This document shows positions 4,488-60,684 of a stretch of 64,000 bases of DNA, in pieces. The stretch comes from a phage. The notes beneath the pieces were generated by a model. The model had not been told where the DNA came from. It saw only the letters and a list, made by a program, of their open reading frames with translations, and made no database searches. Location of the stretch: sequence record NC_135732.1; one strand, given 5' to 3'. The position numbers and the translations under genes are program-made. Numbering within the stretch: position 1 is the stretch's first letter; each line of letters starts with the position of its first letter.

Positions 4488-4608
4488 AGTGACCCTCCGT
4501 TTTAATTTCAACGGTAGTATACCTAACTGTTTTGTTAATTTCAAGTGTTGACACTAGGTTATTTGTGTGGCAGGATAGACTGACAAAATGACAAATGAGG
4601 AACGTATA

Positions 4609-5523
4609 ATGAAGTATTTTAATGCAGACGACCTGGTTGACAAAGGTCTTGTAACCAGTAGGTATTACCCAGATCTCGGGTTAAAGATCTATAAATATGC
4701 TAGAAAAGTATTTTACAACAATTTATGGCATTTGTCCCCTCGTTTACTGGAGTGCCGAGGCATTGTTGTAGGTAATGAAGGAAATGTTGTGGCATGGCCC
4801 TTCACAAAAGTGTTTAACTTGGGAGAAAACTCCACCAACCTGCCTGACAATAAGCTTGTGACTGCGGTAGAGAAAAAGAACGGATTCCTTGGTGTGGTAT
4901 CATCTCATAAAGGTGACCTATTGTTCTCAACAACCGGGTCTCTTGATTCTCCATATTGTAACCTTGCAAAGGAAACCATCCAAGAGCAATGTGGTAATTT
5001 AGATCTTATCAAGAAGGTTATGGGCAATGAAAACATGACATTCATGTTTGAAATTTGTCACCCTTCAGATCCGCATATTGTTCAAGAAGACCATGGCGCA
5101 TATTTGATAGGTTGCAGATATAATGATTCTGGAATAATGCTACCAGAAGCAGCTTTAGATGGGATTGCCAAATACCTTGGTGCAAAACGTCCTCACACTG
5201 TGCGTGAAATCCCGTTCAGCTATGCAAAAGAATTAGCCGCAGAAACAAGGGGCGAAGGGTATATGATCCGTAAGCCTTACTACCCTTATGACCTGCAGCT
5301 GAAGATCAAGTCTCCATACTACCTGGCACGGAAGGCCGTAATGAGGGGTAAAGCTTGGAAGATTTGGGATGATGATATCTTTAAACGTGTTGACGAAGAG
5401 TTTTACGGCATGGTAAACTTCATTCGTAACAATTACACAGAAGATGTGTGGAACTGCCTCCTGGAGCAGGAACGCCGTGAGATACTTGATTACTATTTCC
5501 ACAACGAGAACTATATGCAATGA
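4609..5523 (+). CDS. RNA ligase, Rnl1 family (T4 RnlA-like)
   Basis: Recalled similarity to T4 Rnl1: LECRGIVV, KVFNLGEN, and nucleotidyltransferase motif I KKNGF (Lys ~96). Start may be 4588 or 4609 (GAGGAA RBS). Confidence 0.8.
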   Translation: MKYFNADDLVDKGLVTSRYYPDLGLKIYKYARKVFYNNLWHLSPRLLECRGIVVGNEGNVVAWPFTKVFNLGENSTNLPDNKLVTAVEKKNGFLGVVSSHKGDLLFSTTGSLDSPYCNLAKETIQEQCGNLDLIKKVMGNENMTFMFEICHPSDPHIVQEDHGAYLIGCRYNDSGIMLPEAALDGIAKYLGAKRPHTVREIPFSYAKELAAETRGEGYMIRKPYYPYDLQLKIKSPYYLARKAVMRGKAWKIWDDDIFKRVDEEFYGMVNFIRNNYTEDVWNCLLEQERREILDYYFHNENYMQ

Positions 5524-5870
5524 AGAAGTTGATTGTGTGGCTGGATGACTTGAGAGATCCGTCAAATTATGGGCTCCCAGACGCTATTTGGCTAAAGAAT
5601 TCCTCCGAGTTTATAGATTTTATTAACGATAGGGGAAAGCTCTACAGACGCGTTTCTGAGTGGCACATGGACAACGACCTTGGAGAGTTGTTCGAAGGGT
5701 ACGATTGCCTATCTATGTTGGAGGAAAAATTTGTATTTGGTAAGCCCCCTGTAGTTGACAACGTGAAGATTTTCGTGCATACTTCTAACCCATCAGCGGC
5801 TCGTAAATTCATGCTTGCAGCTGACTCGTTTAAAAAGTTTGGAATAGAGATTAAACAAAACATCTACTGA
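5520..5870 (+). CDS. hypothetical protein, 116 aa, co-operonic with RNA ligase and Sir2-like gene
   Basis: ATGA start/stop overlap with the ligase gene. No recognisable family; short N-terminal strand IVWLDD. Confidence 0.5.
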   Translation: MKKLIVWLDDLRDPSNYGLPDAIWLKNSSEFIDFINDRGKLYRRVSEWHMDNDLGELFEGYDCLSMLEEKFVFGKPPVVDNVKIFVHTSNPSAARKFMLAADSFKKFGIEIKQNIY

Positions 5871-5878
5871 GGACACTT

Positions 5879-6640
5879 ATGCGACGACTGATTATTATCT
5901 CCGGTGCTGGTTTGAGCGCTGAATCTGGTATTCCCACTTTCCGATCTGGTAGCACTGCAATGTGGGAGAATTTCAGCATCGATGAGGTGTGCAACATCCA
6001 CACCTTTGCCAAGAACTACTACAAGGTGCATGACTTTTACAATGCACGTCGTGTAGCTCTAGGCGGTGTTGAGCCTAACCTTGCACATCTTCGGATCGCT
6101 GAGTGGTATTCCCGCTGGTCTGGTCGTGTGATCAACCTTACCACCAATGTAGATGATTTGCTGGAGCGTGCTGGTGTAAAACATGAAGATATTTTACATG
6201 TTCACGGGTATTTGCCAGAAATAGTCTATGAGGACGATGAAGGAAGTGACGTCATTAAGGACATTGGATACTCTGAGGTAGATGCAGGAAAGTATACCTG
6301 GGTTAAACCTAATGTGGTGTTCTTCGGAGAAGTAGCTCCGAAGTATACAGACATGTATGACCTGTTGACTTCTCTTACAAGCAATGATATGGTTATCCTT
6401 GTAGGGTGTTCCAACACAGTTATCAATTTTAACTGGGAGCTATTCCCTGCCTGCAATAAGGGCACCAAACTGCTGATCGTTAACAAATACGACTCACAGC
6501 ATCTAGAGGAGAATGGCATTTCACGTAGTGATATTTACCAGTACGAGGATCGCGGCATCCCGGTTTGGTTTAACGGGGCGGTTGACGCTTTCTCTGATAA
6601 AACATTCATTGAGACCGTAGAAAACTTTATGGAACTTTAA
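5879..6640 (+). CDS. Sir2-family (sirtuin-like) NAD-dependent protein lacking the zinc ribbon
   Basis: Sirtuin motifs GAGLSAESGIPTFR, TTNVDDL, HVHG, VVFFGE and VGCS..VINF..LLIVN. No CxxC...CxxC module after HG. Confidence 0.8.
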   Translation: MRRLIIISGAGLSAESGIPTFRSGSTAMWENFSIDEVCNIHTFAKNYYKVHDFYNARRVALGGVEPNLAHLRIAEWYSRWSGRVINLTTNVDDLLERAGVKHEDILHVHGYLPEIVYEDDEGSDVIKDIGYSEVDAGKYTWVKPNVVFFGEVAPKYTDMYDLLTSLTSNDMVILVGCSNTVINFNWELFPACNKGTKLLIVNKYDSQHLEENGISRSDIYQYEDRGIPVWFNGAVDAFSDKTFIETVENFMEL

Positions 6641-6653
6641 AAGGAGACCTTTA

Positions 6654-7367
6654 ATGCTGAATACTAAACTGATCGACAACCTGGAAAAACTGTCTCAGCC
6701 TGAAAACTATCTTTGGTCTGCCAACTGGGTGGAAAACTGGAACCGTGTGGCAGCTAAAGTGAAAAAATCATACACACCATTCGAATTACAGCTTAGCTTC
6801 ATTGAGGAAGAGTTCAATGAGGTTTTGGAAGAGCTGGAGAAAGGTGATGGTGGAGATCACCTGCTAAAAGAGGCCTGCGATCTTCACGTTGTCACAAGTT
6901 ATGCCGCTTATCTTGTTAATGATAATCACGAAAAGTGGTCAAACCTGTTTGATAATCCACGAGGTCTTAAGTTCAAGATCGGTGAGTTCTATGATACACT
7001 GATCGCTGCGAAAAACACATCCAAGCAAAGAGCGTCAGCTTACCGCTTAGCGGAGTTGTCAACAGCTTTGCTGTTCCAGCTTCGCGGCGATGTGTGTGGG
7101 ATGATGCGGAAGGTTCTCAAATCCAATGACAGCAAGTTTGCACGGATCAACCATCTACGATATTCTCACGGTGCCAGTGCAGATATGTCTACTGAATTGC
7201 TCATAGAGTTAGAGATTGAAGATCTTGAGCGTCGTTTTGGTGGTCGCTACGAAGGTTTCGTTGCTAAAGAGGAGTTCTACAACGGTAATAAAGTTATTAT
7301 ATTCCTTGACAGTAAAGGTAAGATTATGAAGCCTTCGAGCTTCAAGGATGTAACAGAGTATATTTAA
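6654..7367 (+). CDS. hypothetical protein; possible MazG-like NTP pyrophosphohydrolase
   Basis: 237-aa ORF; segment FIEEEFNEVLEELEKGDGGDHLLKEACD resembles a MazG/all-alpha NTP-PPase EExxE helix. Weak. Confidence 0.4.
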   Translation: MLNTKLIDNLEKLSQPENYLWSANWVENWNRVAAKVKKSYTPFELQLSFIEEEFNEVLEELEKGDGGDHLLKEACDLHVVTSYAAYLVNDNHEKWSNLFDNPRGLKFKIGEFYDTLIAAKNTSKQRASAYRLAELSTALLFQLRGDVCGMMRKVLKSNDSKFARINHLRYSHGASADMSTELLIELEIEDLERRFGGRYEGFVAKEEFYNGNKVIIFLDSKGKIMKPSSFKDVTEYI

Positions 7368-7372
7368 CAACA

Positions 7373-7398
7373 TAGCCGGGATTACCCGGCTTTACTTA
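7373..7398 (+). terminator. rho-independent terminator
   Basis: Hairpin AGCCGGG-attac-CCGGCT followed by a T-rich run. Confidence 0.6.
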
Positions 7399-7429
7399 TT
7401 ATGGAAAGTATGCAGTGAGGTAGTTAGTT

Positions 7430-7738
7430 ATGTACAAGCATTCCAGAGATCTTGAAAAAGATGCTGTGTTTGGCGACCAGATGAAGGAGCTGATCAAACT
7501 TATAGGTAGAATGGAAGATAAGTTTGACACTAAAATCTACATCGATAGCAAGATCTTCAACCACAAAATATGGACAAATGTGTGTGTTGGGCTACATGGT
7601 GATAAAGATATTGTAAATTTGGTTGTAATAAAGTTCATAGTGTGGCAGAATAGGACTATACGTTATTCCGATCCACACTTACTTGTTTATCCTATAAAAG
7701 ACCTACTACAGAAGGAGGACTGCAATGCCGTTATTTAA
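7430..7738 (+). CDS. hypothetical protein
   Basis: 102-aa ORF. Confidence 0.45.
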   Translation: MYKHSRDLEKDAVFGDQMKELIKLIGRMEDKFDTKIYIDSKIFNHKIWTNVCVGLHGDKDIVNLVVIKFIVWQNRTIRYSDPHLLVYPIKDLLQKEDCNAVI

Positions 7739-7994: not shown

Positions 7995-9277
7995 TGCATC
8001 AAATCAAAACAACACTGTACGCACTGAACAAAGATGGCAGCTACCAACAGTGGAAAGTATTCACTGATGGCGAAAAGGTTATCGTAGAGTTTGGCAAGCT
8101 TGACGGTAAATTGCAGTACAAAGAGACGGTATGTACACCTAAAAACGTAGGTCGTGCCAACGAGACTACAGCTGAGCAACAGGCCGAGCTTGAGGCTATC
8201 AGCAAGTGGGAAAAACAAGTCCGTCTGGGGTATGTTGAAAACATGGAAGATTGCGAGCAGGGTGTTGATCTTTTACCTATGCTGGTGCATGACTACCTGA
8301 AGCGTGGCAAGGCACTTAAATTACCTTGCTGGATCTTGCGTAAGTTAGATGGCCTTCGTCTGCTTGTTGTTTTCCAAAATGGTGAGCCTAAATTTATTTC
8401 CCGTGGTAATAAGTCCTACCCTATTCAAGGAAAGCTTTTAGAGCAACTTCGTTCTTTCCATTCTACCACTGGGATTAAACAACTTGATGGGGAACTATAC
8501 ATTCATGGTCTTCCTTTGCAGAAAATAGTGTCTCTTGCTAAACGGTGGCGCACACAGGAAGAGATTCAGGCCGAGATCGATAAAGACTATGAGGCAGATA
8601 AAAAACGCCGTCATGCAGCAATTAAGGCAGGCTTATCAACATACAAAAACTTCAACAAGGTAGATATTCCTGTCGATGTTGAGCCTGTTCGTGATGATTT
8701 GCGTTACGGTGGATACTGTAGCTACGATCTGGAGTATCACATTTTTGATATTCCTAGCGACAAGGTGTGGTGGGATCCAGAAACAGAGTCTGGACGCTGC
8801 AAGGATCTTATGGATGCAGAGGATACCGTTACCACTCTGATGCTTGATCATATCAAGGTTGTTGACGCAGAGCTTGCGTACACAGTTGATCATTGCGAAG
8901 AATCTGTTGGTATATTCATGTCCGAAGGATATGAAGGTACTATCATGCGTAATTTCTGCGGTAAATATGAGTATGGTCAGCGAACATCTGAAGCATTGAA
9001 ATGGAAAAAGTTCAACGACGCAGAGGTGAAAGTTATTGACGTTGAGAAAGATAAGAATGATGAAGGTGTTCTTATCTGTGTTGACAAGGAAGGTGTTGTT
9101 GTTAAAATGAAGATGAAAGGCACGCACGAGGAGCGTAGCTATGACAGAATGCAGGAAATGATCGGCAAGTTTGTCACCTTCAAATATCAAGCAAGGACAG
9201 AAGACAACAACTACCAATTCCCTGTCGGTATCTGCGTCCGAAATGTTAACCCAGACACTTGGGAGGTGCTTGAATGA
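7994..9277 (+). CDS. ATP-dependent DNA ligase
   Basis: Ligase motif I RKLDGLR, motif III DGELYIHG, motif IV EGTIMR, motif V KWKK. Confidence 0.8.
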   Translation: MHQIKTTLYALNKDGSYQQWKVFTDGEKVIVEFGKLDGKLQYKETVCTPKNVGRANETTAEQQAELEAISKWEKQVRLGYVENMEDCEQGVDLLPMLVHDYLKRGKALKLPCWILRKLDGLRLLVVFQNGEPKFISRGNKSYPIQGKLLEQLRSFHSTTGIKQLDGELYIHGLPLQKIVSLAKRWRTQEEIQAEIDKDYEADKKRRHAAIKAGLSTYKNFNKVDIPVDVEPVRDDLRYGGYCSYDLEYHIFDIPSDKVWWDPETESGRCKDLMDAEDTVTTLMLDHIKVVDAELAYTVDHCEESVGIFMSEGYEGTIMRNFCGKYEYGQRTSEALKWKKFNDAEVKVIDVEKDKNDEGVLICVDKEGVVVKMKMKGTHEERSYDRMQEMIGKFVTFKYQARTEDNNYQFPVGICVRNVNPDTWEVLE

Positions 9278-9400
9278 TGTAGGAAGGTTCAGTAGGTAAC
9301 GGTAGCCAATTGAATGATGGTTTTCAATCGGCACCTACATAACCACACTGTGTAGTGTTGTTGATCGTGTTAGTTATGAGTAAACTGGAGAGTATGAAAA

Positions 9401-9871
9401 ATGAAACTTGATAAAAATGTTCAACGAAAAGCTTTCTTGGACATGATCGCATATTCGGAAGGCACAGATAATGGTAGGCAACCCACTAAGGATCGGGGAT
9501 ACGATGTCATAGTTGGTGGCAAGCTGTTTAGCGATTACAGCAAGCATCCAGGTGTGTACGTTAAGCTAAATGCTAAACTTACCTCCTCCGCTGCTGGTCG
9601 TTACCAGGTTTTGGAGAAGTTTGCTAAACACTACATGGAACAGTTAGGATTGCCAGATTTTGGCCCCGCCAGTCAGGACAAGATTGCGTTGCAACTGATC
9701 CGTGAGTGCAAGGCTCTCGCCGACATTGACGAAGGGCGTATCCACGAGGCTATCCATAAATGCCGTTCCCGCTGGGCTTCGTTACCTGGTGCTGGATATG
9801 GTCAGCATGAACAGAAGATCGAGAAGTTGATCGAGGTGTTTAAAAAGGCAGGCGGTGTTGTCCTTGATTGA
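9401..9871 (+). CDS. endolysin, lambda R-type lytic transglycosylase
   Basis: Near-colinear with recalled lambda R: RKAFLDMIAYSEGTDNGRQ, GYDVIVGG, AGRYQ, WASLPGAGYGQ. Confidence 0.9.
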   Translation: MKLDKNVQRKAFLDMIAYSEGTDNGRQPTKDRGYDVIVGGKLFSDYSKHPGVYVKLNAKLTSSAAGRYQVLEKFAKHYMEQLGLPDFGPASQDKIALQLIRECKALADIDEGRIHEAIHKCRSRWASLPGAGYGQHEQKIEKLIEVFKKAGGVVLD

Positions 9872-9934
9872 TCATTGACATAACCACACGGACGTGGTAT
9901 TGTTACCTCATAAAATGTTTAGGAGGGCTTAACC

Positions 9935-10141
9935 ATGAAAGATTTTCTGTTGGCAATTTTGTTCATGGTAGCATGTCTGTCCTGTGGTGTCGTGTTTGCA
10001 GGTGAAACAGCGTATCTTGTCGATGTATATCGGGACAATGGTAAACGTATTTGCCTTTATGAGACAAGTCAAGGTGAGCTCTACGAGCTTGTGAAACAAG
10101 GTGAGGCAGGTTCCTGCCCTCGCACCCATTTCTTTGAATGA
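9935..10141 (+). CDS. small secreted or lipoprotein-like protein
   Basis: 68 aa with N-terminal hydrophobic signal LLAILFMVACLSCGVVFA; immediately downstream of the endolysin. Confidence 0.45.
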   Translation: MKDFLLAILFMVACLSCGVVFAGETAYLVDVYRDNGKRICLYETSQGELYELVKQGEAGSCPRTHFFE

Positions 10142-10169
10142 GGGAGAACACGTGGAAGACGGACGTTTA

Positions 10170-10616
10170 ATGAAGTCTGAACGCAGGCTTATTGTGCAAC
10201 TGATCCCAGAAACAGCTTGGTATAATAACCTCCGAAACGCTGTGAAGAAGAGTGAGTGGGATAAGATACGTAAGAAGTGCTATAGAGAAGCCAACTACAC
10301 TTGTGAGGTGTGCGGCGGTAAAGGCAGCAAACACCCAGTGGAGTGTCATGAACTTTACACTTTCGAAGAGGGAGTGATCCGGCTTGTCGGACTGATAGCA
10401 CTGTGCCCGGATTGTCACACATCGGTGCATCCTGGGTTAGCAAATATCCGTGGAAAGTATGCTCAGGCAGTTAATCAGTTGGCTAAGGTGAATAAGATCA
10501 CCAAGAGTATGGCAGAGGCGTATTACCGAGACTGCTTTGCAGAGTGGCGTGAGCTTAGTAAAGTTCCAGAATGGAAGACTGACTTTTCGTGGATAGAGGG
10601 TTACCTTGATGGCTAA
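10170..10616 (+). CDS. putative HNH-type zinc-finger nuclease
   Basis: Cys/His motifs CEVCG...HPVECHELY...CPDCH. Start moved to ATG 10170; track start is GTG 10101 overlapping the upstream ORF. Confidence 0.45.
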   Translation: MKSERRLIVQLIPETAWYNNLRNAVKKSEWDKIRKKCYREANYTCEVCGGKGSKHPVECHELYTFEEGVIRLVGLIALCPDCHTSVHPGLANIRGKYAQAVNQLAKVNKITKSMAEAYYRDCFAEWRELSKVPEWKTDFSWIEGYLDG

Positions 10617-50231: not shown

Positions 50232-50423
50232 TCACTTGTTGTTAATAAGTTCTAAAACTTTCTGTCTTACTTTGTCAAGGTCTGTGGATTCAAAAACTGT
50301 ACGGTATCCCCAACTTTGCCCATAGGAGTGACTGCAATCCCCGTAGCACCATTGCTCAATTTGATAGTATTCAAGGAACGGGTGCTGTCTAACTATGATA
50401 CTATCCCGGTTAAAAATTACCAT
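50232..50423 (-). CDS. hypothetical protein
   Basis: 63-aa ORF. Confidence 0.4.
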   Translation of the reverse strand: MVIFNRDSIIVRQHPFLEYYQIEQWCYGDCSHSYGQSWGYRTVFESTDLDKVRQKVLELINNK

Positions 50424-50486
50424 AATACATCGCTCTCTGTTAGTTTATGCGTATATTATACACTGCAGTTTTCAGATGTCAACCTC

Positions 50487-50681: not shown

Positions 50682-50932
50682 AATTCTCTCCCAAATCATC
50701 TGCAATCTTATACCAAAATCTCCAGCCAGAAAGCACACGGGAACACTTTGAGGATTGAATCTTTACTTGGCTCGGAAGTTCTTTTTCCGTATGGTAGGTA
50801 GAAATACCCTCCTGCAGATTCGAATATAGCTCCTTCGGTTGTATCTACCACAGCAAGAATTAAGATTTTAGTCTCCACAGTGCTCTCCTCTCTTAGTTGT
50901 TGTGGAAACTATATCACCTCAGAAGATGGTCG

Positions 50933-51391
50933 TCAACACTTTTTGTACTCCACCACGATAATATCCATATCAAAAGTGGCAAGGTTAATAACGTCCTCTA
51001 CGTGCTCCCACTTCAAACCGCCTATGCCGCACCCGATCTTAGGGATGTAGAATGGTAAAGTCGATCCACCGAATACCTCGTTGACTAGCTCAAAGCCTTT
51101 CAGGATTGAGAAATATTCAGCATTAGGTCCTGGGTAGAACTGAGTATACAGATTGATTCCGTAGACAATACCTCTCGGAGATAAGTGCTCCCATCGGGAG
51201 AATGCACCCAGTTTACTTAGGCAACCGTGTCTAGTCTCTTTGTCGGCTGACAATGCTTGAGGGAACTCACGGGCAATATCTTTCGCTATGCCTGCACCCA
51301 TTGTGTGAAAGCAGTTACAACCGTGGATCATGTGTCCTGCCCCTTTCTTGAAAAGGGAGATTAGATCTCCTTCTACAGTATCAATAATCAC
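50933..51391 (-). CDS. macro-domain protein (ADP-ribose binding/processing)
   Basis: Segment GDLISLF...HMIHGCNCFHTMGAGIAKDI aligns by eye with the macro-domain GDIT...VNAAN..GGGV block; C-terminal GCGIGG. Start uncertain (GTG 51391, or ATG 51472/51490 with long overlap). Confidence 0.65.
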   Translation of the reverse strand: MIIDTVEGDLISLFKKGAGHMIHGCNCFHTMGAGIAKDIAREFPQALSADKETRHGCLSKLGAFSRWEHLSPRGIVYGINLYTQFYPGPNAEYFSILKGFELVNEVFGGSTLPFYIPKIGCGIGGLKWEHVEDVINLATFDMDIIVVEYKKC

Positions 51392-51806
51392 GGTATGCCA
51401 GCTCCTCTTCCGCAATTTCAAAAAACTCAGTCCAGCACTGTGGCATATTGGAGTTACCGAAGTGGCTTTCATAGTAAAGGTTCTCACCACTCGGGAGATA
51501 GAAATCTGTTACCTCATAGAATCCACAATCGTCGCACTCACCTTCTTCAAACTTGGCCTCGACCTTAATACCGAGGAAGGTGAAAAGTTTATGGATATCT
51601 TCAGTTTCGAACTCCCAGTGAATGTTGTTTTCCGCATCGGTGTAGAACTGGATCAGCAGACCATTGTCCAGTTTACCAAAATACTCTGTGAAGTAACTTC
51701 CTTCCCAGAAATCTTTATGACAAATAATATCCATGCGTTTGCCCATAATAATGGTGTGAGCGTTTTGGGCATCATCACGAATCAGTTTTGGCATTTCATA
51801 GATCAT
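51381..51806 (-). CDS. hypothetical protein
   Basis: 141-aa ORF. Confidence 0.45.
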   Translation of the reverse strand: MIYEMPKLIRDDAQNAHTIIMGKRMDIICHKDFWEGSYFTEYFGKLDNGLLIQFYTDAENNIHWEFETEDIHKLFTFLGIKVEAKFEEGECDDCGFYEVTDFYLPSGENLYYESHFGNSNMPQCWTEFFEIAEEELAYRDY

Positions 51807-51874
51807 CTTAGTTCTCCGGGTTCAACAGGTGGTGGTGCTACAGGAAGATCATAAAACATGGCTATCACAGTCTC

Positions 51875-52072: not shown

Positions 52073-52168
52073 GGGCAGTGGCCTCCTGTTAGTTATACAT
52101 CCCAGTTTTCTTCGTTCATCACGTCCTCCCGTTCTATGAAGTTATAATTACACACCTTTCAACTTGTG

Positions 52169-52585
52169 TCAACAGAAAACTTCAACAAATTCTTCCACAG
52201 TTTTAATGTCGTGTGAAAAAGGTTTACGGCTATAACGGGCAATAGCACTATCAACCACCGCCCGGTACTCCAAATCTTCAGAATATTTCATGAAGCATTG
52301 CAGCGTCTCTGGGCAGATAGCTAAATAGCTCCACCACCCCTCTTCAGATTGGTAGTCGAATCCCATACTCTCCAACCATGAAGCATATACGCCTGCACCC
52401 TCAAGCCAGTGAGTATTTTCATCCAGAAACTTGTTAATAGACATGTGAGCTTCTAAGCATTTATCCAGCTCTTTTCCGTTAACCAGCCACGCACTGACCG
52501 TGGCGCATCCAAAGTCTACAGATTGAGTTGACAGGTTGTATTGGTCATAGTTCTCAGGTTTAACAATGATATCTTCTAATGTCAT
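52169..52585 (-). CDS. hypothetical protein
   Basis: 138-aa ORF. Confidence 0.45.
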   Translation of the reverse strand: MTLEDIIVKPENYDQYNLSTQSVDFGCATVSAWLVNGKELDKCLEAHMSINKFLDENTHWLEGAGVYASWLESMGFDYQSEEGWWSYLAICPETLQCFMKYSEDLEYRAVVDSAIARYSRKPFSHDIKTVEEFVEVFC

Positions 52586-52599
52586 TTTTCAGATCTCCT

Positions 52600-52632
52600 T
52601 ATACAAAAATGCCCCACCCTTTCGGGCAGGGC
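52600..52632 (-). terminator. terminator; same 22-bp sequence as at 63599-63620
   Basis: GCCCCACCCTTTCGGGCAGGGC forms a GAAA-looped hairpin on the minus strand, followed by a T-run. Confidence 0.55.
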
Positions 52633-52647
52633 TATGTTAACTAGATG

Positions 52648-53874
52648 TTAGAATGGGATGTCATCATCAAAGGCGTACTGTGCTGGATTCTGATCCATCG
52701 GGTCATCTTCCTCGTCATTTACAGGAGGAGCGTCTACAGTATTTTGCTGTGAAGCAGCTTCCTGTTTGGCAGCTTGAGGTTCTTGATGGTCAGTGGACCC
52801 AGCACCGTTCTTGATCCAATCGTACAACGGCTCAGCCAGATTAGTCAAGACATCTTTTGCTTCTGCAGTAATTGCCGCTGCAAAATCATCAACTTTCGTT
52901 TTCTTGTCAATACGGCGACAAGCGTTCAACACCGCATTACCGACACTGGCACCTACTTCATCTTCAGTTCGGTTGGTGGCTTGAGCATACTCTTTCTTAA
53001 GCTCAATAGTGACTACGTGCAGTGTTTTAGCCACACCTAGTGGGTCGTCTACCTTAAACCCGCGATCCAGGATGATTTGCAACGCATTGATGCTATGTCC
53101 CGTCTCCACACCAATAGGGTCGTAAGAGGATTTACGCTTGCCACCAGAGCCTTGAGTGCCGTTCTCTGCCTTAGGTGGATAGGCTTTGAAACCACTGATA
53201 ATGTTTCCGGTGTCTTTGTCAACAATGGCTGCAACACGACCACCTACCACCAGGTCTTTAAGCTGCTCATCAGTAACAACCATGGCACCTTCGCCAATCT
53301 TGTGGTCATTAACAGTAACCACGTTGCCAACAATCTGAGTCACATCGCCATAGATGCGTAAAACGTCCTGATTGGCATTCTGCTGAGGTTTCTGCTTCTG
53401 GCCTTGTGATTGTGCACCTTGTTGCTGTTTTTGCTGCTGAGTCGCTGCTGGAGCCTCTCCTGCACCCAGCTTGACCATCTTAGCCAGTGAGCCTTTGTAA
53501 TAGGTCTTACCGTTATGCTCGTTTGCCTTCAAAGGGATATTTACGATCCATCCCGGCGTTACGGTTTCCCACTTGTCATCAATCTTAACAGAGACAGAGT
53601 CTTGATGACCAGGTTTAAGCAGCTTATCACCCATACTGATCCAAACTTCTTCACCACCTTGAAGCAGGTTATCAGAGGAATCCAGTTCAGAAATCAGTAA
53701 AGAGATGGTGTGGCTGGATTCAATTTTCTTACCTTGCCACACAGTGGTTTTAATACCTGTTGTAGGATCAGCACCTTTGATAGGTTTGATGCTGACACGT
53801 TTAATCATGCCGTGAGCCAGTAAAACAGTTTCACGCGGATTCATCGGGTTAGCGAATTGTTGAATAACGCTCAT
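52648..53874 (-). CDS. putative single-stranded DNA-binding protein with SSB-type acidic C-terminal tail
   Basis: Ends ...NPAQYAFDDDIPF (E. coli SSB ends DDDIPF); Gln-rich linker. No OB-fold alignment done. Confidence 0.5.
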   Translation of the reverse strand: MSVIQQFANPMNPRETVLLAHGMIKRVSIKPIKGADPTTGIKTTVWQGKKIESSHTISLLISELDSSDNLLQGGEEVWISMGDKLLKPGHQDSVSVKIDDKWETVTPGWIVNIPLKANEHNGKTYYKGSLAKMVKLGAGEAPAATQQQKQQQGAQSQGQKQKPQQNANQDVLRIYGDVTQIVGNVVTVNDHKIGEGAMVVTDEQLKDLVVGGRVAAIVDKDTGNIISGFKAYPPKAENGTQGSGGKRKSSYDPIGVETGHSINALQIILDRGFKVDDPLGVAKTLHVVTIELKKEYAQATNRTEDEVGASVGNAVLNACRRIDKKTKVDDFAAAITAEAKDVLTNLAEPLYDWIKNGAGSTDHQEPQAAKQEAASQQNTVDAPPVNDEEDDPMDQNPAQYAFDDDIPF

Positions 53875-56510: not shown

Positions 56511-56734
56511 AGGTCCTCTTCAACAGCTACAAACTTGGCAAGCAGGGTGGTTCCGTAGATATGATACTCACCGTTTGCCAGATGGGAGATAAACCAGGCA
56601 ATCCCTTCCTCGTCTTTAATCATCTTGTTTGCACGATTTTTATCGTAATAAACCTCGTAGGTCTTTCCTTCTTTAAAGAAGGACAGGTCTGTCATCTTTT
56701 CTTCTACAAAAGTAGCTTTAACCAAAGTTGTCAT
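56507..56734 (-). CDS. hypothetical protein, three-member paralog family
   Basis: Motif DEEGIAWFISHLANGEYHIYG. Confidence 0.4.
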   Translation of the reverse strand: MTTLVKATFVEEKMTDLSFFKEGKTYEVYYDKNRANKMIKDEEGIAWFISHLANGEYHIYGTTLLAKFVAVEEDL

Positions 56735-57048
56735 TGATCGGTCTCCTTCTTGTTAAGTCTGAATACTGCAATAATAGCATTCCCAAGGTGCAGTGTCAAA
56801 TCATTTCCAAGATACCACAGCATCCCACGGTCATCTTTAATGAAAGGGTGACAATCTGGTGCCTTCCAGACATTGTACACTTTCCCAACCTGAAAGAAAT
56901 CAGGCCCTGTCGGGATTTTGGTGCCTGGCCACACTTGAGATACCTGAACACACTCCACCTGCATAATAACAGGGATAGTCATGGATGTAAATGTTTTTGT
57001 TGGCTCTACTACCATAAAAGTCTCCTCTTTGCTCAACAACACTTCCAT
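56731..57048 (-). CDS. hypothetical protein, three-member paralog family (start uncertain)
   Basis: Motif DDRGMLWYLGNDLTLHLGN; track start 57105 overlaps the polymerase exon 2. Confidence 0.35.
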   Translation of the reverse strand: MEVLLSKEETFMVVEPTKTFTSMTIPVIMQVECVQVSQVWPGTKIPTGPDFFQVGKVYNVWKAPDCHPFIKDDRGMLWYLGNDLTLHLGNAIIAVFRLNKKETDQ

Positions 57049-57064
57049 GTGTTGATAGTTTACA

Positions 57065-57418
57065 TTAGTGACAATCACCCCAATTACGACCACACAAGTA
57101 TTCACCTGTGATCTGGAACGGGACTCCCATCATTTTAGAAGCTTGCCAGAAGCAATGCACCACCATTTCACCCACCGGGCTCCAGATAAGTTCAAGCTTC
57201 CCGTCATCGTTCAGGATAGGATCGTACACCGTGTTTCCGTCTCTGTCAACCACTTCGTTTCCGTTCTCATCCTTGCGTGCCTTTTTGTACTTATGACCGT
57301 CAAACACATGAAGTTTGGCTTCCTGCTCTGCCTTAAATGCTTCCAATTCTTCAATTGTGTCGAAGGTGTACACAGTCTTATACTTAGGCGTGTCAGGGAC
57401 CTGAAGTTGGTACTCATC
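57065..57418 (-). CDS. DNA polymerase (family A), exon 2 (C-terminal part)
   Basis: Begins DEYQLQV, completing motif C (...IIYYH|DE) when joined to exon 1; ends LCGRNWGDCH like Pol I (GENWDQAH) and T7 (GPNWAICH). Confidence 0.6.
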   Translation of the reverse strand, partial: DEYQLQVPDTPKYKTVYTFDTIEELEAFKAEQEAKLHVFDGHKYKKARKDENGNEVVDRDGNTVYDPILNDDGKLELIWSPVGEMVVHCFWQASKMMGVPFQITGEYLCGRNWGDCH

Positions 57419-58260
57419 CAATAGTTCAGGTAGGTCGTTAAGCTACCCCGCACCATTACGTGCACAGCCATACGGTTTCCTGTATGGATCGGACTATCTC
57501 ACTACCTTGTTACCAAGGCACCTCTCATTTCGACCGCACTTGCTGGCCTACTCTACTCGCTTCTTCACACCAAACTATGTTGGAGCTATGCTTTCGATAG
57601 TCTCTGAACGTTACTACCAGGTGTAGTTTTTAGAGATATGTTTCCACTGTCTTCTTTGCTTTATGGCTCTGACCGTCTCATAAGGATACCCAAGATCCCT
57701 AATCTCGCATTGTCGTAGACCACTCTGCAACAGTTCGCAAATCTCCGTTACCTCATCCTCGGTCAGCACAGCGTTGGCATTATACTCACCGACTGGCCTT
57801 ACTCTGAGTTCATTATCGTAGGCGTGTTTGATATTTCCACCAGGGGTAGTCCATTCCAGGTTCCAGTGTGCATTGTTGTACTTATTTCCATCCTTATGGT
57901 TCACCCATGTGAGCTTTTCAGGATCAGGGTTCGGTACAAAGCATTCAGCAACCAAGTGGTGGACACCTTTTGTGCACTGCTTCCCCTCGATGAGCATGGT
58001 TACGCAAAGGTAACCTCTACCATTATCAAAACAAAACATTGTTGTATGATCACGTTTCGATAAAGGTATTGTTCCATCATCAAACACGGTATACCCGTGA
58101 TAATCAGCTGATCTAGCCATTTTAACTACACCCCTTTAGTCTTCGCTGCGGATTAGCATATTAAGCTTTTACCATGTTCAGGTGTAAAAGTCAACTTAGC
58201 CTTCCCGTCAATTAAAGAGGTTTTCGACGTGCATCACTGCACGAAGCCACAATGTTATTT
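57419..58260 (-). mobile_element. putative group I intron interrupting the DNA polymerase at motif C, carrying an HNH ORF
   Basis: Exon 1 ends ...TAC CAT (last nt U); the 842-nt intervening sequence ends with G; splicing restores YYHDEY. Confidence 0.55.
57614..58120 (-). CDS. HNH homing endonuclease
   Basis: HNH core LTWVNHKDGNKYNNAHWNLEWTT; same subfamily as the nrdD intron ORF. Confidence 0.8.
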   Translation of the reverse strand: MARSADYHGYTVFDDGTIPLSKRDHTTMFCFDNGRGYLCVTMLIEGKQCTKGVHHLVAECFVPNPDPEKLTWVNHKDGNKYNNAHWNLEWTTPGGNIKHAYDNELRVRPVGEYNANAVLTEDEVTEICELLQSGLRQCEIRDLGYPYETVRAIKQRRQWKHISKNYTW

Positions 58261-60684
58261 ATGGTAATAAATAATACGACGAACACCTTCATCGTACCAC
58301 CCGCGCTTCACCATTTGGTGGTGCATGAGTATCCCAACTAAGTCACACAACGATGCACCACCATTCTGTTGGTATGCATTAAGTAAAGAGTGTTTAGATC
58401 GGGTCCAGATAGCATGACCATCAAAAGAGTAGATAAACTTCTTACCCGTTGCTTCCCAGAATTTCTCCAGATCTTCTTTACGCCCCTTAAGACCGGGGTT
58501 GGCATCCCAAAGTGCATCGATTACCCTTTGTCCCAACTCTGGGGAGATATCCAGCATGTCTGCAACTTTGTCTTTTTGTGCCCCATACATAACCCCATAC
58601 GTGATAGGTTTACCGTCGTTACGAGACACCTCTCTGCCTGCTACTTTTGTATATGCCTCAGCATTGTTTTGGTGTGCGTCCCCGTTACTTACAACATCAT
58701 AATACAAGCCGTTGTCGAACTCAAAGGCACCCCAAGCCCCGATAAGCTGCTCTAAGTTGGACCCGTCAATACCGATCTCAAAGTATCCCGGAGGAACACC
58801 CCACAGACTACGCATCTCTTTACCCATAACAACTTTAGGAGATGGTTTAGGCATGTTTGCACAAATACTGTGTTTCTGTCTGGAAGTGTTTGTTAATCCA
58901 GAGCTTTTAGCAGGAAGCTTATGGTCAATCTTCAAACGTGGGTGATTAAGAAGACCAGTGTCAACCTTATCCTCCTTGATTGGATCAAGTACCGATCTGC
59001 GGTTTCGCAATGATAACCACAAGACGATATCTTTAGCCATCTCTCCGTTCAATTTTTCAAGATTCGGGCACAGGTGTCCAAACGTATCTTTCAGTTGCGG
59101 AGAAGTAATAAGTGCCCTAGCTTTTCTACGTATTTTCCCGAATACTTCCTTTTTAATCCTTTCGGAGTTAGGAAAGCTTCGGAACTTGTGCACGGTTGTC
59201 TGGAACTTAGCATCAGTTTTGTTCCAGAAGTTGATAATTAGATCACAATACTCTGACTCTAAAAGCTCGTCCATATATGCATATACTCGTGCATCAACAT
59301 CTGCATCAGGTAGAGCTTTCTTCTTGCTGTCTTTAGTTACATCCTTAGTTCTCCACATTGTCGGAAGCCAACCAGCACTGATCAGATACCGCTTAATGTC
59401 GTCCTGATTGCTGATTTTCATAGGTATCTTGCAGTCCGGCATTCGCTTCTGCTGTAGATCACTTATTGCCTGATCCATTAGCTCTTTAGGTAAAGGTTGT
59501 GGTGTGGAGGTGCCCTTAATATAGCCTCTCAAGAAATCAGCCATCTTATCTGGGTCTTTGCAGCCCATCTCTTCACACCATTTTATCCCCATCTTACTGA
59601 CATCTCCTGTGGAGGTAAATGCTCGCTTAGGCGGGGCTTTGAACTCTAAAGCACTCATGTCTACAGGATAGCCAAGCTTATCTTTTAACCATTTCCAACC
59701 ATTATTGGAAATTGTCCCATCTTGGTTAAATGGCTTTTCAGGGAACTTGGGCCGCTGAGACATTGACAGCTCTTTTAAAGGTAGTTGTGGTTCAACACGA
59801 TCAGCGATTTCTTTCATCCACGCATCGCAACGGTCACGTAAAGCAATAGCTCCATCTATGTCAAAATACACACCCTGACGGGCCTGCAGCTCCATCAGGA
59901 AGTGCTGCAGCATGCCTCGGCGCAATGCGTTCTTCCAGGTGATTTTCTTGAACCCTTTCGGCTTCTCTTTGGCTGGATCGTACATAAAGTTCTGCATGTC
60001 AGATTTGCCGTAGAATACACCTTTTGATTCCGCTACCAGCTCTTTCCAGAGCAGCTCCTGGATGATAACGTCCTCGAATACACGATCCACATACTTCCAC
60101 AACGGAAGATCGCGCCAGTCATCAATTTGAACTTTCTGGTTACCAAGGGCGTAGCCCCATGCCATAAGGCCGTGAGGACCAACAGGCTGCATTTTCTTAG
60201 TAACCGGGTTGAATACAGAGTCCGGACAACCTTTTGGTAAAGGGCGATCAGGCCACAAGATTCTGCTCATCGCCAACGTATCAAACAGGTTAACCTGGTG
60301 GTCGTTGATAGTCCCCATGCATTTAGGATCACGGAACATATCAAAATGAATACCGGATAATCTTTCCATCAGCATAAAGTCATAACTGTAGCAGTTATGG
60401 CAGTTCAAAGCTGTTGGTGACCAGTCGGAATTGCCTGTAAGCCAACCTTCCAACTCCGAAAAATCTGCTATGCGAACTTCAAAATCTTTATGAAGAGTTT
60501 TCTTTGCCAGAATAAAGTTCTTAGCCTTCTCTATATCCTCTTCGGAGTAGTGTGTGCGGTCATTTAGAGGAAGGAACAGCATAAAACGGTTCTTATTCAG
60601 CTCTTTAAACAGGCCGCAGTGATAATAAAGATCTGGATCTTCCAGCAAACCGGATGACTCAAAGTCGAACGACCACATGCTCAT
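58261..60684 (-). CDS. DNA polymerase (family A, T7-like), exon 1
   Basis: 3'-5' exo motif FDFESSG; motif A IGIDGSNLE; motif B RNDGKPITYGVMYG; track ORF reads through into the intron (H-K-stop). Confidence 0.8.

Follow-up and report, generated by a model that had tools for sequence, protein, structure and literature searches.

A stand-alone phage macrodomain orthologous to T4 Tk.4 and its probable role in countering DarT2

In this work, we analyzed 64,000 nucleotides (nt) of a phage genome (NC_135732.1; hereafter the window) and found that the minus-strand gene at 50933-51391 encodes a stand-alone ("orphan") macrodomain. Profile searches and a predicted structure place the protein in the ALC1-like class (TARG1, DarG, SCO6735/BT1257, and Poa1p), and by sequence comparison it is the vequintavirus orthologue of Tk.4/AdfM of phage T4. 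Based on this orthology and on analogy with characterized macrodomains, the protein probably acts against DarT2 as an orphan DNA ADP-ribosylglycohydrolase. Within a recently recognized and very widespread family of phage counter-defense genes, it is an ordinary member, and sister genomes already have a macrodomain annotated. An earlier note, made from the sequence alone, had placed a macro-domain protein at exactly these coordinates, and this was borne out; the macro fold was found by profile, structure-prediction, and fold searches (Pfam Macro, an AlphaFold2 model, and Foldseek). The point of wider interest is the invariant Gln that the T4/rV5 clade has where DarG has a Lys, together with conserved residues that are the clade's own.

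Orthology to T4 Tk.4 and distribution of the family

The source genome of the window is a Vequintavirus (rV5-like Escherichia coli myovirus), and around the macro gene a 2.6-kb stretch shares 96-97% identity with rV5_ev168, I29, and many other Escherichia phages. Using tblastn, we found homologues in 2,792 of 50,697 phage records, including Tequatrovirus, and the match in RB6 falls on gene tk.4, next to vs. The window protein aligns with T4 Tk.4 over its full length (152/155 residues) at 40% identity (BLASTP, E 1e-40). Tk.4 matches the window solely at 51391-50942, and each T4-like record listed has one match. Both proteins are single-domain and ~152-155 amino acids (aa) long, and the segments HGCNCFHTMG, ADK, KLG, NLYTQ, PGPN, and PxIGxGIG are found in both. 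The differences concern the phages and the setting of the genes: T4 belongs to Straboviridae and the window to Vequintavirinae, the start codon is ATG in T4 and GTG in the window, and the T4 neighbors are vs, regB, and tk, whereas those in the window are small open reading frames (ORFs) downstream of replication genes.

In T4, transposon sequencing identified tk.4 as the sole significant gene under DarTG2, and a clean tk.4 knockout is DarTG2-sensitive; the gene was accordingly named adfM (anti-DarT factor macrodomain), with the enzymatic activity of the product inferred by its authors (bioRxiv 10.1101/2025.11.20.689424). In the same study, insertions hit 45/46 TA sites of tk.4, which is non-essential on E. 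coli K-12, and the vequintavirus Bas54 was mutagenized as well, with screening hosts other than DarTG2 (bioRxiv 10.1101/2025.11.20.689424). The Bas54 orthologue, bas54_0092, is 84% identical to the window protein and has insertions at 31/31 TA sites on E. coli K-12. The gene is therefore dispensable when DarTG2 is absent, and such tolerance of insertions is as expected of a conditional counter-defense gene. Both tk.4 and its vequintavirus counterpart lie amid prereplicative small genes, and the genetic demonstration of an anti-DarTG2 function concerns T4 only.

Several family members are fused to other domains. Among the ten longest members scanned, three are fused to NADAR (metagenomic P0155, P0210, and P0214) and two to DUF4326 (P0155 and P0149), such that P0155 combines macro, NADAR, and DUF4326 domains in 472 aa. 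NADAR, which is found in DarG1 and in the phage factor AdfN, removes guanine-linked ADP-ribose from DNA (PMC11825919). An enzyme that combines anti-DarT2 and anti-DarT1 activities would be expected to have a macro-NADAR architecture.

The copy in the T4-like Enterobacteria phage Brandy (Krischvirus; locus 1501-1956) is syntenic with T4 tk.4, being located downstream of regB. At 68% identity, it is far closer to the vequintavirus protein than T4 Tk.4 is (40%). This pattern suggests that the macro gene has been exchanged laterally between unrelated myovirus lineages. Two distant homologues have no DarT partner beside them. The first is on a phage-like contig of 195 kb, close to a gene for DNA polymerase III alpha, and the second is in a bacterial chromosome. 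The bacterial chromosomal member P0095 (JBCAZO010000030.1, locus 5528-7223), which has the motif NAYTQ, is located directly upstream of an Exo_endo_phos (AP-endonuclease superfamily) gene. There are hints that the non-phage members may have a housekeeping role in DNA repair, as has been proposed for SCO6735.

Fold and structural class

The match to Pfam Macro (PF01661) has a score of 25.6 bits, just above the gathering cutoff of 22 (E 1.2e-5), and the protein also matches PHROG 335 (E 1.8e-58). An AlphaFold2 model based on a 60-sequence alignment, with a predicted local distance difference test (pLDDT) score of 96.2 and a predicted template modeling (pTM) score of 0.90, has the three-layer alpha/beta/alpha macro fold. 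The family profile matched SCO6735, BT1257, TARG1, DarG, and Poa1p with E-values between 3e-14 and 4e-9. In a further search, the scores fell to 13.9 or lower for the coronavirus, alphavirus, and MacroD types, and Foldseek was in agreement. The nearest structural and profile neighbors thus belong to the ALC1-like class, clearly apart from the MacroD, viral, and PARG types.

The only match in PADLOC and NCBIfam was to the macrodomain part of DarG (E 6.8e-11 and 1.5e-10, respectively). Compared with DarG (T. aquaticus and M. tuberculosis; 5M31, 5M3E, 5M3I, and 7OMU), the window protein is without the C-terminal DarT-binding domain, and the DarG profiles were matched only at positions 3-141/338 and 4-142/329. 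Because this domain is absent, the score against the DarG model NF048014 (40.9 bits) is far below the equivalog cutoff of 250 bits. We rejected an identity as DarG on four features, namely, the equivalog score, the C-terminal domain, the catalytic lysine (Gln84 is found at the position of K80 of T. aquaticus DarG), and an adjacent darT; no match to DarT was found among the neighboring ORFs scanned.

Two eukaryotic housekeeping enzymes, human TARG1/OARD1 (4J5R) and yeast Poa1p (6LFQ-6LFU), belong to the same class and were recovered by Foldseek with E-values of ~1e-9, with a TM-score of up to 0.78-0.85 for TARG1. TARG1 differs in having Lys84 and Asp125 where the window family has Gln84 and Gly. 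Poa1p has the H23-x-C-N26-C27 motif in common with the window protein, but has a Ser at the Gln84 column and an insertion of ~25 residues before the last glycine loop. The residues probed by deposited Poa1p mutants are H23, S30, and F152; in the window protein, H23 is conserved and T30 is aligned to S30.

Active-site signature

An exhaustive family search yielded 1,289 clusters (50% identity) at E <= 1e-30. Conservation was scored in an alignment of 258 family members, including 150 diverse representatives from this search. Conservation and alignment together define three groups of codons in the macro gene:

51311..51325, minus strand: codons H23-G-C-N26-C27, a substrate-binding loop with the conserved macrodomain Asn
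51140..51154, minus strand: codons N80-L-Y82-T83-Q84
51017..51043, minus strand: codons P117-K-I-G-C-G-I-G-G125, a glycine-rich diphosphate-binding loop

Within the family, conservation is nearly complete at Q84 (255/256), N26 (256/256), C27 (256/256), D50 (256/257), N80 (256/256), Y82 (255/255), and H23 (251/256). The residues P117, G120, and G122 are invariant, and N26, G32-x-G34, and G120-x-G122 are invariant or nearly so. The window protein and T4 Tk.4 both have the resulting signature, H-G-[CA]-N-C...D50...K-L-G...N-x-Y-T-Q...P-x-I-G-x-G, and each position is found in 251-256 of ~256 members. The first loop aligns with H-V25-C-N27 of SCO6735 and H23-S-C-N26-C of Poa1p, and the last with PRIGCGLAGG of SCO6735 and BT1257 and PPLGVGNGG of DarG.

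In alignments with the solved structures, the Q84 column corresponds to the catalytic Lys of DarG (K80) and TARG1 (K84) and to Gln85 of SCO6735, such that N26 and Q84 align with Asn27 and Gln85 of the latter (the numbering was checked against the 20-residue tag offset of chain 5E3B_A). The NLYTQ motif is shared by T4 Tk.4, and a Gln at this column is therefore compatible with in vivo function against DarTG2. The near-invariant substitution of Gln for Lys also makes the family a good system for studying the catalysis of DNA de-ADP-ribosylation without a lysine.

The Gln column is shared with SCO6735 of Streptomyces coelicolor (5E3B) and BT1257 of Bacteroides thetaiotaomicron (2FG1/2AFC), which are ALC1-like proteins of the Gln type. 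These are products of bacterial chromosomal genes, are 23-24% identical to the window protein, and have the motifs HVCND and NMIGQ where the window protein has HGCNC and NxYTQ. SCO6735, with Gln85 at this column, efficiently removes thymidine-linked ADP-ribose from DNA and rescues DarT toxicity; its Q85A mutant is inactive and N27S nearly so, with Asn27 holding the Gln in place (PMC9411070). A longer mobile loop defines the SCO6735 subclass (PMC9411070). This loop is five residues longer in SCO6735 (GQHGMKTGSKG) than in the window protein (TQFY-----PG), where it is short, like those of DarG and TARG1.

A more distant precedent is PhiKZ gp104, the AdfM of chimalliviruses, which removes DarT2 ADP-ribose from DNA in vitro and rescues DarT2 toxicity (Cell Rep 2026, PMC13309987). 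This protein is likewise a stand-alone phage macrodomain of similar size and of the same structural class. However, it is only 21% identical to the window protein (E 2e-5), keeps the DarG-type FPTK lysine and a TVN motif, and is imported into the phage nucleus. The low identity and the different catalytic residue led us to reject filing the window protein with PhiKZ AdfM. Given the 21% identity and the lysine retained in PhiKZ, the two AdfMs belong to different subfamilies, and from their sequences they were probably recruited separately.

Four features occur together in the T4/rV5-type proteins, namely, an HGCNC loop like that of Poa1p, an invariant Gln at the catalytic-Lys position, a mobile loop of the short type, and the private residues C27, D50, and Y82. 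A more far-reaching view, which we consider rather unlikely, is that the T4/rV5-type AdfM is more than a DarG macrodomain captured by phages and is a large, phage-dominated subclass of its own, with catalysis distinct from that of both DarG (Lys) and SCO6735 (Gln and a long loop), which was recruited independently of the Lys-type PhiKZ AdfM and serves as a broad-spectrum eraser of nucleic-acid ADP-ribosylation. The substrate range may then be wider and include, for example, other ADP-ribosylated bases, RNA, or ADP-ribose-1''-phosphate.

Predicted function in countering DarT2

DarT2 ADP-ribosylates thymidines in single-stranded phage DNA and thereby stops replication (summarized in PMC11825919), and DarG, TARG1, and SCO6735 each free DNA of thymidine-linked ADP-ribose (PMC9411070). 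What we infer on the substrate, chemistry, and biological role of the window protein follows from its relatives. Because it is the orthologue of T4 Tk.4/AdfM, the likely substrate is thymidine-ADP-ribosylated phage DNA, not protein. The earlier note had proposed that the protein removes host ADP-ribosylation. The removal of a mark inflicted by the host is indeed likely, but this orthology shifts the probable target to phage DNA carrying the thymidine-linked modification made by DarT2.

During infection of an E. coli strain that carries DarTG2, DarT2 would modify thymidines in the single-stranded DNA of the phage and block replication. The macrodomain, which would be expressed from the same minus-strand block as the replication genes, could bind the ADP-ribose with its glycine loops and hydrolyze the N-glycosidic bond between ribose and thymine, such that ADP-ribose is freed and the template restored. 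Catalysis is probably of the SCO6735 (Gln) type, not the DarG/TARG1 (Lys) type; Gln84, held by Asn26, may position the distal ribose, and a water molecule may do the chemistry, as proposed for SCO6735. As the protein does not have the C-terminal DarT-binding domain of DarG, it should act mainly by reversing the modification enzymatically. The macrodomain might also inhibit DarT directly, an effect that has been reported for SCO6735.

Several observations weigh against this role. The support from T4 is genetic and comes from one preprint of November 2025, and at 40% identity to Tk.4 the substrate specificity could differ. The N-terminal HGCNC motif is closest to that of Poa1p, an ADP-ribose-1''-phosphate phosphatase, and the family profile scores SCO6735, TARG1, DarG, and Poa1p about equally (46.8-56.4 bits). 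The longer mobile loop proposed for DNA binding by SCO6735 is absent, and the phage family has private invariant residues (C27, D50, and Y82). Moreover, phage macrodomains have been predicted to act mainly on soluble ADP-ribose derivatives (Iyer et al., PMC9503650).

The protein might instead reverse the ADP-ribosylation of proteins or RNA, erasing marks left by other host ADP-ribosyltransferase defenses or by phage transferases, which we consider improbable. Macrodomains overall act on many 1''-linked substrates (PMC9503650), and TARG1 and SCO6735 also hydrolyze Glu/Asp-linked protein ADP-ribose, but SCO6735 strongly prefers a DNA substrate (PMC9411070). The window protein has no feature proving DNA binding, and its predicted isoelectric point is 6.0; however, in the defense screens described, the T4 orthologue has a phenotype only under the DNA-modifying DarTG2 (bioRxiv 10.1101/2025.11.20.689424). 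The NADAR domains found as fusion partners are DNA-base de-ADP-ribosylases, and the ORFs scanned around the macro gene did not include one for an ADP-ribosyltransferase.

A Poa1p-like clean-up role, in which the protein would act as an ADP-ribose-1''-phosphate phosphatase or O-acetyl-ADP-ribose deacetylase on by-products of a Sir2-like enzyme or of RNA repair, is even less probable. The window does contain a Sir2 gene (5879-6640) and an Rnl1-like ligase gene (4588-5523), both on the plus strand, and the earlier note had suggested that the macrodomain processes products of such reactions. These genes are ~45 kb away and on the strand opposite to that of the macro gene. In the sampled hit lists, T4-like phages are macro-positive and absent among the 1,020 Sir2-positive records, and T5-like phages are Sir2-positive and absent among the macro hits. 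With linkage found neither by position nor by distribution over the sampled phage records, we rejected a functional coupling of the macro gene to the Sir2 and ligase genes. Repair of the Pnkp/Rnl1 type is not known to yield ADP-ribose-1''-phosphate. This compound arises by the Tpt1/KptA 2'-phosphotransferase route, and the scan of window ORFs did not reveal a Tpt1. The Ser that Poa1p has at the invariant Gln column and its ~25-residue insertion, which is absent in the window protein, also argue against this role, and the "phosphatase" labels in databases go back to A1pp, the former name of the domain, and were not assigned from assays.

The least probable role, by a small step, is the degradation or sequestration of soluble ADP-ribose immune signals or toxins (for example, Thoeris cyclic ADP-ribose isomers or His-ADPR) that would blunt NAD-based defenses, in line with the soluble targets predicted for phage macrodomains at large (PMC9503650). 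The anti-Thoeris proteins known to us are unrelated sponges. Furthermore, the nearest structural and profile neighbors of the window protein are glycohydrolases of macromolecular ADP-ribose, not ThsA-type sensors, and the phenotype of the T4 orthologue is specific to DarTG2 (bioRxiv 10.1101/2025.11.20.689424).

The preferred role against DarT2 has a practical side. Vequintaviruses are broad-host-range E. coli phages that are found in collections for therapy and biocontrol. A probable anti-DarTG2 enzyme in these phages may aid in predicting which hosts can be overcome and in explaining host-range data.

Start codon and coding status

The coding sequence (CDS) and its translation signals are as follows:

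50933..51391, minus strand: macrodomain CDS, 152 aa, single-domain, GTG start and TGA stop (ORF list, Pfam Macro, PHROG 335, AlphaFold2 model, BLASTP against T4 Tk.4, and the substitution-rate ratio given below)
51389..51391, minus strand: GTG start codon of the macro gene (aligned homologues)
51402..51407, minus strand: Shine-Dalgarno-like GAGGAG, 10 nt upstream of the GTG and within the 3' end of the upstream ORF (direct reading; kept in the window, I29, rV5_ev168, and PMBT16)

The counterpart in I29, likewise a CDS of 459 nt, is annotated as "macro domain protein", and that in rV5_ev168, of the same length, as "T4-like protein with Macro domain, Poa1p_like family". Compared with five vequintavirus orthologues, the macro gene has a ratio of nonsynonymous to synonymous substitution rates (dN/dS) of 0.11-0.14, which indicates a real coding gene under constraint.

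The earlier note regarded the start codon as ambiguous, and the comparison of homologues settled it at the GTG at 51391. This codon is GTG in all six vequintavirus sequences compared (the window, I29, rV5_ev168, PMBT16, Bas50, and Bas54), and the aligned codon is ATG in Krischvirus Brandy, RB6 tk.4, and T4 tk.4. The orthologues, including the ATG-initiated ones, thus share this start position. In 60 homologues, the N-terminus falls within a few residues of it.

Other frames were rejected. A 185-aa frame that begins with the GTG at 51490 would run 110 nt into the conserved upstream ORF, and its extension is present in no homologue, the ATG-initiated orthologues beginning at the codon aligned with 51391. 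The macro gene annotation in PMBT16, which is longer (498 nt) and has the same label as that in rV5_ev168, is likewise an over-extension. The plus-strand ORFs at 50880-51050, 50897-51058, and 51330-51854 were treated as spurious because the minus-strand genes across the locus are conserved, annotated, and under purifying selection.

Neighborhood and transcription of the macro gene

The genes for a primase-helicase and a DNA polymerase, as well as a 408-aa ORF, lie upstream of the macro gene on its strand. The features closest to the macro gene are as follows:

51381..51806, minus strand: upstream 141-aa ORF without a Pfam match, whose TGA has an 11-nt overlap with the macro start (ORF list and Pfam scan)
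52144..52172, minus strand: sigma-70-like promoter candidate TTGACA-17-AATTAT with extended TG, upstream of the run of the 65-aa, 141-aa, and macro ORFs (consensus scan only)
50908..50936, minus strand: sigma-70-like promoter candidate TTGACG-17-TATAGT with TG, which overlaps the macro stop and reads into the downstream small ORFs (consensus scan only)

The GTG of the macro gene overlaps the TGA of the 141-aa ORF (GTGATTATTGA), and the pair of 426-nt and 459-nt genes with its 11-nt overlap is annotated in I29, rV5_ev168, Bas48, Bas50, and Bas54. Given this overlap, translational coupling of the two genes is likely, and they are probably on one transcript. The consensus scan found 24 sigma-70-like promoter matches in the macro stretch compared with 10.9 +/- 3.5 expected. 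This excess and the small minus-strand ORFs make prereplicative expression plausible and in this respect agree with the earlier note, which had assigned the macro gene to an early-gene block. There is also a perfect sigma-70 consensus (TTGACA-16-TATAAT) at 50455-50482 on the minus strand, just upstream of a 63-aa ORF (50232-50423), as well as several more near-consensus promoters on the minus strand of the macro block. A strong terminator-like hairpin was found at 52611-52632, after the 408-aa ORF.

A Pfam scan of the neighboring ORFs found one phage zinc-binding domain and otherwise no match. No NADAR or other ADP-ribose domain was found in the 30 mid-size ORFs scanned in the window, which covers less than half of the genome.

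The 408-aa ORF (52648-53874, minus strand) has a glutamine-rich low-complexity center, an acidic C-terminus, and no Pfam match. Its Bas54 orthologue, bas54_0087, was classed as essential in transposon sequencing, with 8/57 TA sites hit. The product is possibly a replication accessory or single-stranded DNA-binding protein.

Variation among vequintaviruses

The macro gene is among the most diverged genes locally, with 91.9-92.2% nt identity to I29 and rV5_ev168 compared with 95-100% for nearly all flanking genes. At least two groups of macro alleles are found in vequintaviruses, with ~93-95% aa identity for Bas50/FFH2 and ~83-84% for Bas54/PMBT16. Judging from the sequences, this divergence looks like allele replacement by recombination, not relaxed constraint.

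The window is without a ~0.62-kb gene for an endonuclease VII-like protein or putative homing endonuclease that is present in I29, rV5_ev168, and Bas54 between a 138-aa ORF and the large Q-rich ORF (I29 locus 8586-10515, rV5_ev168 locus 5586-7514, and Bas54 77014-77637). The window interval 52585-53874 is ~640 nt shorter, and the large Q-rich ORF has 408 aa compared with 423 aa. In these sequence comparisons, the gene is a presence/absence polymorphism of a mobile endonuclease.

The DNA polymerase region (56731-60684, minus strand) contains an 809-aa ORF (58255-60684). Next come a 168-aa ORF that weakly matches HNH_3 (57614-58120) and then ORFs of ~118-124 aa (56731-57421). In rV5_ev168, the polymerase is a single CDS of 925 aa. 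The polymerase gene of the window thus seems to be split, and the likely cause is an inserted HNH homing endonuclease or an intron.

On the plus strand at 4588-7367, the Rnl1-like ligase gene (4588-5523) and the Sir2 gene (5879-6640) are grouped with a 237-aa ORF that has no Pfam match (6654-7367). The 1,020 phage records with Sir2 homologues include, most prominently, T5-like, phi92-like, and jumbo phages. Among other records, 16 labeled as "Campylobacter phage" (15 with C. jejuni as host) match the vequintavirus macro region at >=80% nt identity, 25 "Campylobacter phage" records match the Sir2 gene, and the Sir2 protein has a 58%-identical match in a "Listeria phage" fragment. The hosts named in these labels seem doubtful, and the records may be contaminants or mis-assigned.

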